A DNA stretch of 64,000 nt from assembly GCF_030384885.1 (NCBI RefSeq), contig NZ_CP128613.1, one strand, 5' to 3'. Of the stretch, positions 7,400-7,894 are shown piece after piece. Every line of letters starts with the position of its first letter. Within the stretch, counting starts at the first letter, position 1. A program made the translations under genes and the position numbers. Source of the DNA: Escherichia coli. Its GTDB lineage: Bacteria > Pseudomonadota > Gammaproteobacteria > Enterobacterales > Enterobacteriaceae. The notes beneath the pieces were generated by a model that searched no databases, was not told the DNA's origin, and worked only from the letters and a program-made list of their open reading frames with translations.

Positions 7400-7495
7400 A
7401 TGAATGTTTCCAGTAGAACTGTAGTACTGATAAATGTCTTTGCTGCTGTTGGTTTGTTTACTCTTATCTCTATGAGATTTGGCTGGTTTATTTGA
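7400..7495 (+). CDS. yncL: 31-aa single-TM small protein, consistent with YncL
   Basis: Not in ORF track (<60 aa). ATG at 7400 preceded by aaggtgg SD; translation MNVSSRTVVLINVFAAVGLFTLISMRFGWFI then TGA at 7493-7495; hydrophobic core typical of small membrane proteins. Confidence 0.6.
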   Translation: MNVSSRTVVLINVFAAVGLFTLISMRFGWFI

Positions 7496-7894
7496 TGTAG
7501 TGATTTTGCACGCAGCACGTACTGTCAGAGAAATCAGTGCTCTGACAGTACGCAAGATCATCTCATACTCTCCAGGTTTACAACATTATCCTTAATATTT
7601 ACTTCTTTTTGCTGACATCTACATTGAAATAAGTAGAAAACATCCCCCTCCTATCGTCCTTACAGACAGCTTACTGATTCAAAGGGAACTTTGTTTTCAC
7701 ATTTTTCTATCATCATTACTTTAGACGCGCGGGGTCTATAAATGCTTTATACTTTCAGGGAATAAAGTAAATATAAAAAGATGGCATAAAGTATATGCAT
7801 GGCAGGATGTTTGCAACCTCCTTGAGGACGCTGTCCCATTGAAATTGCAAACCCCGCACTGGTTATCTGCCCATTTATCATGTAAAACAGACAA

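Follow-up and report, generated by a model that had tools for sequence, protein, structure and literature searches.

The inverted repeat downstream of yncL in Escherichia coli as a probable protective 3′ stem-loop of a Rho-terminated message

A short open reading frame and a perfect inverted repeat were analysed within a 64-kb stretch of Escherichia coli chromosomal DNA (hereafter, the window; positions are counted from its first letter). The reading frame at 7400–7495 on the plus strand is yncL, a small-protein gene that has been annotated and studied before, and the repeat is best read, by analogy, as the protective 3′ stem-loop of a Rho-terminated transcript, which is an established class of element. 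We consider it probable that the yncL message is read through the hairpin, terminated by Rho and trimmed back by exonucleases to the protective stem-loop. Taken as a whole this account is likewise probable, and it would make positions 7342–7602 the full yncL transcription unit of E. coli. Both the gene and the element class were already known, and the RNA 3′ end is already present in a published table; a strong K-12 Term-seq end listed there as 'antisense patD' is now assigned to the yncL mRNA.

The yncL gene and its predicted transcription unit

The gene order in this region is curA, mnaT, ydcZ, ydcY, ortT, yncL, a gene for a CatB-related O-acetyltransferase, and patD. The segment 7250–7900 is 100% identical to the corresponding sequence of strain 2013C-4282, and 5415 of 5426 complete E. 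coli genomes match it. The features discussed below are as follows, with the evidence for each in brackets.

7032–7205, minus strand: ortT, a GhoT/OrtT-family orphan toxin gene and the divergent partner of yncL (RefSeq; Pfam PF10753, 96.9 bits)
7342–7370, plus strand: putative yncL promoter, with a −35-like TTGCGG (7342–7347), a 17-nt spacer and a −10 TATACA (7365–7370) (sequence and conservation)
7388–7394, plus strand: Shine-Dalgarno sequence of yncL, AAGGTGG, with the ATG 5 nt further on (sequence and conservation)
7400–7495, plus strand: yncL coding sequence, 31 amino acids (RefSeq annotation, NF000537 profile, orthologues and hydropathy)
7518–7552, plus strand: 3′ stem-loop of the yncL mRNA (structure, energy, chance expectation, covariation and copy number)
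7553–7602, plus strand: C-rich, G-poor untranslated tail, a candidate rut region (base counts)
7555, plus strand: equivalent of the mapped steady-state RNA 3′ end at K-12 position 1517039(−) (Adams 2021 Term-seq)

The reading frame extends from the ATG at 7400 to the TGA at 7493–7495 and encodes MNVSSRTVVLINVFAAVGLFTLISMRFGWFI. The initial annotation had described it as an unannotated, yncL-like frame. RefSeq, however, annotates exactly this frame as yncL ('stress response membrane protein YncL'), and the relationship is closer than a likeness: residues 1–30 cover all 30 positions of the NCBIfam equivalog profile NF000537 with a score of 72.5 bits against a cut-off of 35, which identifies the frame as yncL proper. 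There is no Pfam model for YncL. The good ribosome-binding site that had been proposed was found as listed above, and a purine-rich GGTGG or GGNGG is kept upstream of yncL at every orthologous locus. The proposal of a single transmembrane helix also agrees with the protein sequence, which contains one strongly hydrophobic stretch; the best 19-residue window comprises residues 7–25 (Kyte-Doolittle mean 2.22), for which one transmembrane helix is predicted. The K-12 gene (b4598) occupies the same locus, divergent from ortT, and its coding sequence is identical bar one codon, so that the two proteins differ solely at residue 14 (valine here, phenylalanine in K-12). The valine allele occurs in five of the six E. 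coli sequences compared.

According to PMC12542507, which cites Hemm 2008/2010, YncL is made in the cell, and heat shock, growth in minimal medium and entry into stationary phase induce it. Its production leads to membrane depolarisation and nucleoid condensation (PMC12542507), and the protein acts as an RseP substrate in vivo (PMC10470546). The yncL mRNA has been recovered as a RIL-seq/TRIC-seq partner of RprA, and it is also a RIL-seq target of the predicted small RNA KilS.

The −10 element of the putative promoter is preceded by a C, giving the sigma-S-type sequence CTATACA. In most of the 40 species in which yncL was found, elements matching CTATAC and ATTGCG are kept upstream of the gene, and the −10 core is degenerate in some of them (CTATAAA in Pseudocitrobacter, CTATATA in Pluralibacter). 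The yncL/ortT (yncL/ydcX) intergenic region contains a strong RpoS SELEX peak (PMC5493296), and expression of the Salmonella orthologue is sigma-S-dependent (PMC5437024, PMC4014581). Judging from the position of these elements, transcription would start near 7377. The predicted product would be a monocistronic message of roughly 180 nt, made from a sigma-S-type promoter and encoding the 31-residue inner-membrane protein YncL; from the predicted start to the mature end at 7555 the RNA would measure about 179 nt. In Salmonella, the orthologous short sigma-S-dependent transcript STnc1110 (a 'coding sRNA', STM14_1932/yncL) is of similar length, about 195 nt, and encodes YncL. It was first catalogued as a sigma-S-dependent 'sRNA', and the Salmonella protein was detected as a lacZ fusion alone, the tagged protein being undetected (PMC5437024).

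The inverted repeat and the mapped RNA 3′ end

The repeat forms a perfect 13-bp stem (CGTACTGTCAGAG at 7518–7530 and CTCTGACAGTACG at 7540–7552) enclosing a 9-nt loop (AAATCAGTG, 7531–7539). These dimensions are as initially described, and the structure is real beyond chance, being the sole perfect 13-bp inverted repeat with a loop of 3–20 nt in the window, where 0.01 is expected (mean of 200 first-order Markov simulations). The repeat had been placed at 7526–7560, about 8 nt too far to the right, and about 30 nt past the reading frame; measured from the stop codon, the distance is 22 nt. The stem has a centroid energy of −22.5 kcal/mol, and its 85-nt context folds at −29.7 kcal/mol (z = −3.9, plus strand). 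An outer helix was also predicted (GAUUUUGC/GCAAGAUC); it is cut by the mature 3′ end and is not conserved in other Escherichia, and it was rejected. A promoter-like match within the 3′ arm (7542–7569, 9/12) is no more than expected by chance.

The initial annotation had suggested searching the genome for other copies of the palindrome. It proved to be single-copy (median one place per genome) in 5411 of 5426 E. coli genomes, and allowing up to two mismatches no copies of the 13-mer beyond chance were found elsewhere in the window. REP/BIME elements are likewise extragenic palindromes at gene ends that are able to protect mRNA 3′ ends, but they are dispersed in hundreds of copies, whereas the yncL palindrome occurs once per genome with no near copy in the window. 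A search of positions 6000–9500 against Rfam 15 (E ≤ 1) returned no relevant family for the hairpin or the transcript; a match to MIR5649 at 8884–8937 (E = 0.08) is a chance match to another hairpin.

No T-run lies beyond the stem on either strand, as had been noted from the start. The tails are CAAGATCA on the plus strand and TGCTGCGT on the minus strand, and the eight nucleotides after the stem contain one T on the former and four scattered T on the latter. A terminator consensus scan did not flag the site, because the loop exceeds 8 nt and a T-run is absent. A canonical intrinsic terminator has a 7–8-nt U-tract immediately behind a GC-rich stem, with the RNA 3′ end inside that tract; neither the tract nor such an end is found here.

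Mapping of transcript 3′ ends, which the initial annotation had put forward as a check, has been carried out for K-12. In the Term-seq data of Adams et al. 2021 (Supplementary file 1, MG1655), a 3′ end is recorded at 1517039(−), and the 61-nt string given for it equals positions 7505–7565 of the window letter for letter. The end is the second A of …CAGTACG-CAA, 3 nt past the stem. The register of the string was calibrated on the thrL entry as −50/+10, whereas the caption gives 40 bp upstream; as a further check of the mapping, the ortT start codon derived from it (1517389) agrees with the '-32' entry of another 3′ end. The end is very abundant, with 75,265 reads in LB at OD 0.4 and 536,300 at OD 2.0 (Adams 2021), and this sevenfold rise fits sigma-S control. 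Position 1517039 is entered three times in the file, which consists of three condition sheets. Its label 'antisense patD' arose only because the end lies 60 nt past the yncL stop codon, beyond the 50-bp limit for a 'primary' end, and less than 50 bp from patD.

On the same strand, 286 nt further downstream, Supplementary file 2 of Adams 2021 records a Rho termination region with its peak at 1516753(−). DirectRNA-seq reads upstream and downstream numbered 220 and 9 without bicyclomycin and 106 and 72 with it (Rho score 16.6, p = 5e-21; Adams 2021), so that downstream reads rose from 4% to 68% of those upstream; the score is computed from 800-nt windows and is too coarse to place the termination point. 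Part of the reads revealed by bicyclomycin could come from other antisense promoters inside patD. The sequence after the stem is rich in C and poor in G: C outnumbers G by 13 to 3 in the first 50 nt and by 26 to 8 in the first 100 nt. Comparison of the junctions shows that the last 13 nt of the candidate rut region (CCTTAATATTTAC, 7590–7602) are a remnant of the patD stop region.

All of these RNA data are from K-12 MG1655. The hairpin and its flank are identical in the two strains up to 7572; the sequence then differs, because a 1.3-kb island that K-12 lacks follows in this strain. The K-12 RNA end would presumably be formed at the same place here, and the Rho termination site would be expected to differ: within the region antisense to patD in K-12, and in the AT-rich spacer before the CatB-like acetyltransferase gene in this strain.

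These observations bear on whether RNA polymerase might instead stop at the hairpin itself without Rho, the palindrome serving convergent yncL and patD as a common intrinsic terminator that lacks a U-tract and may work in both directions. The length and stability of the stem (13 bp, −22.5 kcal/mol) would suit such a terminator, as would its position between genes whose stop codons are 96 nt apart in K-12. A U-tract is, however, absent from both strands, the RNA ends 3 nt past the stem rather than 7–9 nt, bicyclomycin lifts the downstream reads, and the Term-seq tables list no patD-strand 3′ end at the hairpin. We regard this explanation as unlikely overall. U-less intrinsic termination is possible as a partial contributor, and weak hairpin-driven termination followed by nibbling could be an alternative origin of the end at +3.

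Ownership and conservation of the stem

In K-12 the hairpin lies between convergent yncL and patD, and four observations assign it to yncL and not to patD. It is found 9–45 nt past the yncL stop codon both where about 190 nt and where about 6100 nt separate patD from the yncL start; the stem is unchanged in strains that carry the 1.3-kb island; patD in these strains has a strong hairpin of its own; and the yncL strand carries the sole RNA end that has been mapped. The hairpin of patD follows directly after its stop codon (approximately 8884–8936, minus strand), with an energy of −26.8 kcal/mol and a U-rich tail. That the yncL stem persists unchanged beside it also speaks against the shared intrinsic terminator considered above. 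A secondary role of the yncL hairpin on the patD strand is possible. The island, which is AT-rich and carries the acetyltransferase gene, lies between the hairpin and patD in 1157 of 5426 genomes. Insertions have occurred repeatedly at the patD stop codon in several genera, with junctions 38–50 nt from the stem.

The overlap of the two convergent transcripts raises a further explanation, namely that the palindrome is an RNase cleavage or processing site arising from a patD–yncL 'excludon', the end being made by an endonuclease and not by an exonuclease. ExcludonFinder includes patD–yncL among convergent overlapping pairs, the abundance of yncL mRNA is altered in RNase E or RNase III mutants, as confirmed by northern blotting (PMC3082872), and STnc1110 of Salmonella shows an extra band of about 120 nt that 'might be processed'. 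Against this, the hairpin is retained at loci with patD kilobases distant, and patD is weakly expressed where the yncL end is very abundant, with no patD 3′ end listed. Moreover, RNase III substrates are typically longer than a 13-bp stem. Endonucleolytic processing as the origin of the end is in our view highly improbable.

Orthologues were collected by identifying the conserved YncL N-terminus in a search of a representative library and then applying a degenerate DNA pattern to a collection of species genomes. This gave 40 matches, each encoding a YncL orthologue of 30–31 amino acids, from 40 species in 10 genera (Escherichia, Citrobacter, Salmonella, Klebsiella, Raoultella, Enterobacter, Pseudocitrobacter, Pluralibacter, Trabulsiella and Intestinirhabdus). 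Of the 39 loci with enough downstream sequence, 38 have a stable hairpin (−15 to −27 kcal/mol) within 9–45 nt of the yncL stop codon; the exception is Intestinirhabdus alba, where the hairpin is weak (−5.7 kcal/mol).

The hairpins are of two kinds. A homologous stem without a U-tract is present in Escherichia, Citrobacter and Salmonella (for example TGTCAGAG/CTCTGACA, TGGCAGAGAG/CTCTCTGCCA and GGCGGGGAGG/CCTCTCCGCC). The last of these, from Salmonella, is richer in GC and, unlike that of E. coli, has a T-run about 10 nt beyond it; the homologous, co-varying 3′ stem is also seen in S. enterica subsp. arizonae and diarizonae. In Klebsiella, Raoultella, Enterobacter, Pseudocitrobacter and Pluralibacter gergoviae, the same slot is filled by a canonical terminator with A-tract, GC-rich stem and T-tract, the first four of these genera carrying AAAAAAGCAGCC…GGCTGCTTTTTT at this position. 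The E. coli element differs from these in having neither A-tract nor U-tract and in an RNA that ends 3 nt past the stem; its end-forming role is presumably shared with them. The excess of C over G in the 50 nt after the stem averages +7.4 in the U-less group versus −2.7 in the canonical group (Mann-Whitney p = 2e-6, a value that ignores shared ancestry). Since a canonical terminator fills the same slot, the function of the slot appears to be the formation of the 3′ end of the yncL transcript. The two kinds of hairpin are what would be expected of such a slot, Rho and a protective stem forming the end in some genera and an intrinsic terminator forming it in others.

Covariation was assessed in an alignment of 27 sequences from Escherichia, Citrobacter and Salmonella. 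Changes on both sides are seen in 9 of 15 stem pairs, and 84.7% of the cells in the alignment pair. The covariation score of 0.253 compares with 0.119 ± 0.014 for shuffled alignments, none of 500 reaching it, and with at most 0.171 for slid controls. As nine of the pairs co-vary and the score exceeds both kinds of control, the structure of the stem is under selection. The arms vary by compensatory substitutions that preserve pairing, and loop lengths lie between 3 and 9 nt. Among E. coli sequences two forms of the loop occur (GTG or ACT) while the stem is kept; one variant at the base of the stem, a C-to-U change, preserves a U·G pair. The strand of the selected RNA was addressed by counting G·U against A·C cells in the stem alignment. 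The count, 14 versus 21 cells, favours neither strand, which is compatible with a terminator acting in both directions, as are the true, bidirectional-looking terminators at this position in other genera and the mixed or transitional cases described by Dar and Sorek.

The same comparison bears on a possible role of the palindrome at the DNA level: it might be bound by a dimeric protein, or it might direct recombination or insertion in the variable region that starts about 50 nt downstream. Its symmetry is perfect, and the stretch from the hairpin to the patD stop codon is the recurrent insertion point noted above for several genera. The sequence of the arms varies, however, with pairing alone conserved and a spacer of 3–9 nt; unrelated terminator hairpins replace the palindrome in other genera; the site lies at gene ends, outside any promoter; it is single-copy per genome, with no second site in the window; the insertion junctions are at the patD stop codon and not at the stem; and an RNA 3′ end maps to the palindrome. 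A transcription-factor palindrome in particular was rejected, as the half-sites are unconserved, their spacing ranges from 3 to 9 nt and they lie between convergent gene ends. Comparison by eye with the LexA box (CTGT-N8-ACAG) and other DNA motifs gave no fit, the CTGT…ACAG spacing here being 19 nt. A role at the DNA level is thus extremely unlikely. Of the two options raised in the initial annotation, a protein-binding palindrome therefore finds no support, while an RNA stability or processing element is borne out by the mapped 3′ end, the downstream Rho region and the covariation of the stem.

A protective stem-loop and the ortT–yncL pair

The class to which we assign the palindrome was described by Dar and Sorek 2018, who reported that Rho-terminated E. 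coli transcripts end precisely after stable stem-loops without U-tracts, that C is enriched over G directly downstream of these stem-loops, and that PNPase or RNase II produces these ends by shortening longer primary transcripts. The yncL stem resembles these protective 3′ stem-loops (Dar and Sorek 2018; Peters 2012 model) in being stable and lacking a U-tract, in the RNA end at +3, in the excess of C over G downstream and in bicyclomycin-sensitive read-through. It is unusually perfect for the class (13 of 13 pairs), and a dependence on PNPase or RNase II is assumed here by analogy.

By this reading the palindrome would work as RNA, as a stable stem-loop shortly after the stop codon with the mature mRNA ending 3 nt beyond its base. 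With a stem that lacks a U-tract and a C-rich, G-poor tail behind it, RNA polymerase most likely reads through the hairpin, and Rho would terminate transcription downstream. The tail would then be trimmed by 3′-to-5′ exonucleases as far as the stem-loop, which would block these enzymes and may thereby stabilise the message.

The initial annotation had placed the reading frame and the palindrome next to the orphan toxin gene ortT, and ortT is indeed the divergent neighbour. In all 40 species found through yncL, the two genes are adjacent and divergent, about 190 bp apart. The surroundings of the pair vary and the pair itself is constant. For both OrtT and YncL, which are mini-proteins, membrane damage or depolarisation has been reported. 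Antitoxin activity was tested in published work with yncL–ortT intergenic DNA, which, as described there, did not include the yncL reading frame. It can be imagined that OrtT is not truly an orphan, and that it makes up a two-peptide module with YncL, the two being inherited and regulated together and YncL modulating OrtT or acting as its partner; we hold this idea to be quite doubtful.

The conservation of the ortT–yncL pair means that it is inherited as a unit. Should the two-peptide module be true, the perfect 3′ hairpin would give the yncL message a long life and in this way set the ratio of YncL to OrtT. Dar and Sorek 2018 proposed that protective stem-loops could become intrinsic terminators, or the reverse, by the gain or loss of uridines. 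The yncL orthologues, which carry a canonical intrinsic terminator in some genera and a stem lacking a U-tract, with C-rich sequence behind it, in others, provide a clean natural case of the exchange that they predicted.

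The divergent ortT-yncL pair and the ortT leader

The gene for the 31-aa membrane mini-protein YncL and the orphan-toxin gene ortT are divergently arranged in 40 of 40 species from 10 genera (loci L007-L046, recovered through yncL; window 7032-7495). Across these loci, all recovered through yncL, ortT lies upstream with its start approximately 180-200 bp from that of yncL, and it stays beside yncL while patD and ydcY/ydcZ shift kilobases away. An extra copy of ortT is seen 3' of yncL in Pseudocitrobacter.

Published Term-seq data place a minor 3' end of 848 reads at K-12 position 1517357(+), corresponding to window ~7237(-); its Rho score of 0.52 was rated as not Rho-dependent, and its intrinsic-terminator score was 3.2 (Adams 2021). 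The site precedes the ortT start codon by 32 nt and has a T-run and a small GC hairpin beside it. This 3' end could represent a leader attenuator of ortT.

Variation in YncL and its downstream hairpin

The perfect 13-bp stem-loop 3' of yncL occurs with two loop alleles among E. coli strains (window 7536-7538): AAATCAGTG, which is found in K-12 and in the window, and AAATCAACT, which adds one A-U pair and so leaves a 7-nt loop. Among the variants at the stem base are a C-to-T change that keeps a U.G pair and a G-to-A change that loses one pair. The protein-representative search with YncL returned a read-through variant of 82 aa (P0002, a single database representative), in which the first 31 residues are identical and the chain then continues through the hairpin region, implying loss or alteration of the yncL stop codon in at least one genome.

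Immediately 3' of the stem, the motif GATCTTC(C/T)CAC (window 7553-7575) is common to Escherichia and Citrobacter, the insert-bearing lineages included. It could form the core of a candidate rut site, a region for Rho loading, or could simply reflect shared ancestry.

Insertions at the patD stop codon

The stop codon of patD, the gene convergent with yncL, is a recurrent insertion point (window 7590-7602 and 8926-8949; L007, L009, L016, L017, L045). Each insert has at its left junction a patD-end remnant of 12-13 nt, CCTTAATATTTAC in the window and CCTTAATATGTAA and CCTTAATGTTTAC in Citrobacter, and is followed by an intact patD end. No integrase was seen in the inserts of the compared loci, and their cargo varies by lineage.

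Insert cargo by lineage
E. coli: CatB-like acetyltransferase
Citrobacter: AraC-type regulator-like gene and transporter-like gene (putative ORFs)
Other lineages: small ORFs

The insert in the window is an AT-rich island carried by 1157 of 5426 E. coli genomes:

7603-8925: AT-rich island, 33% GC versus 49% for the window
7895-8704, - strand: acetyltransferase CDS, 269 aa, hexapeptide-repeat, RefSeq name 'CatB-related'

The acetyltransferase carries an N-terminal extension of approximately 60-90 aa. Its top NCBIfam matches are TIGR03308, a phosphonate-metabolism transferase family (132 bits; cut-off 201.65), Vat (127 bits; cut-off 300) and CatB (104 bits; cut-off 350). All three fall far under the cut-offs, and for this reason a resistance function is not established.

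In island-bearing strains a strong hairpin (-26.8 kcal/mol; window ~8884-8936(-)) lies directly 3' of the patD stop and is followed by a U-rich stretch. The same hairpin accounts for an Rfam match to MIR5649, which was rejected as spurious. The island has probably provided patD with this hairpin as a substitute 3' end.
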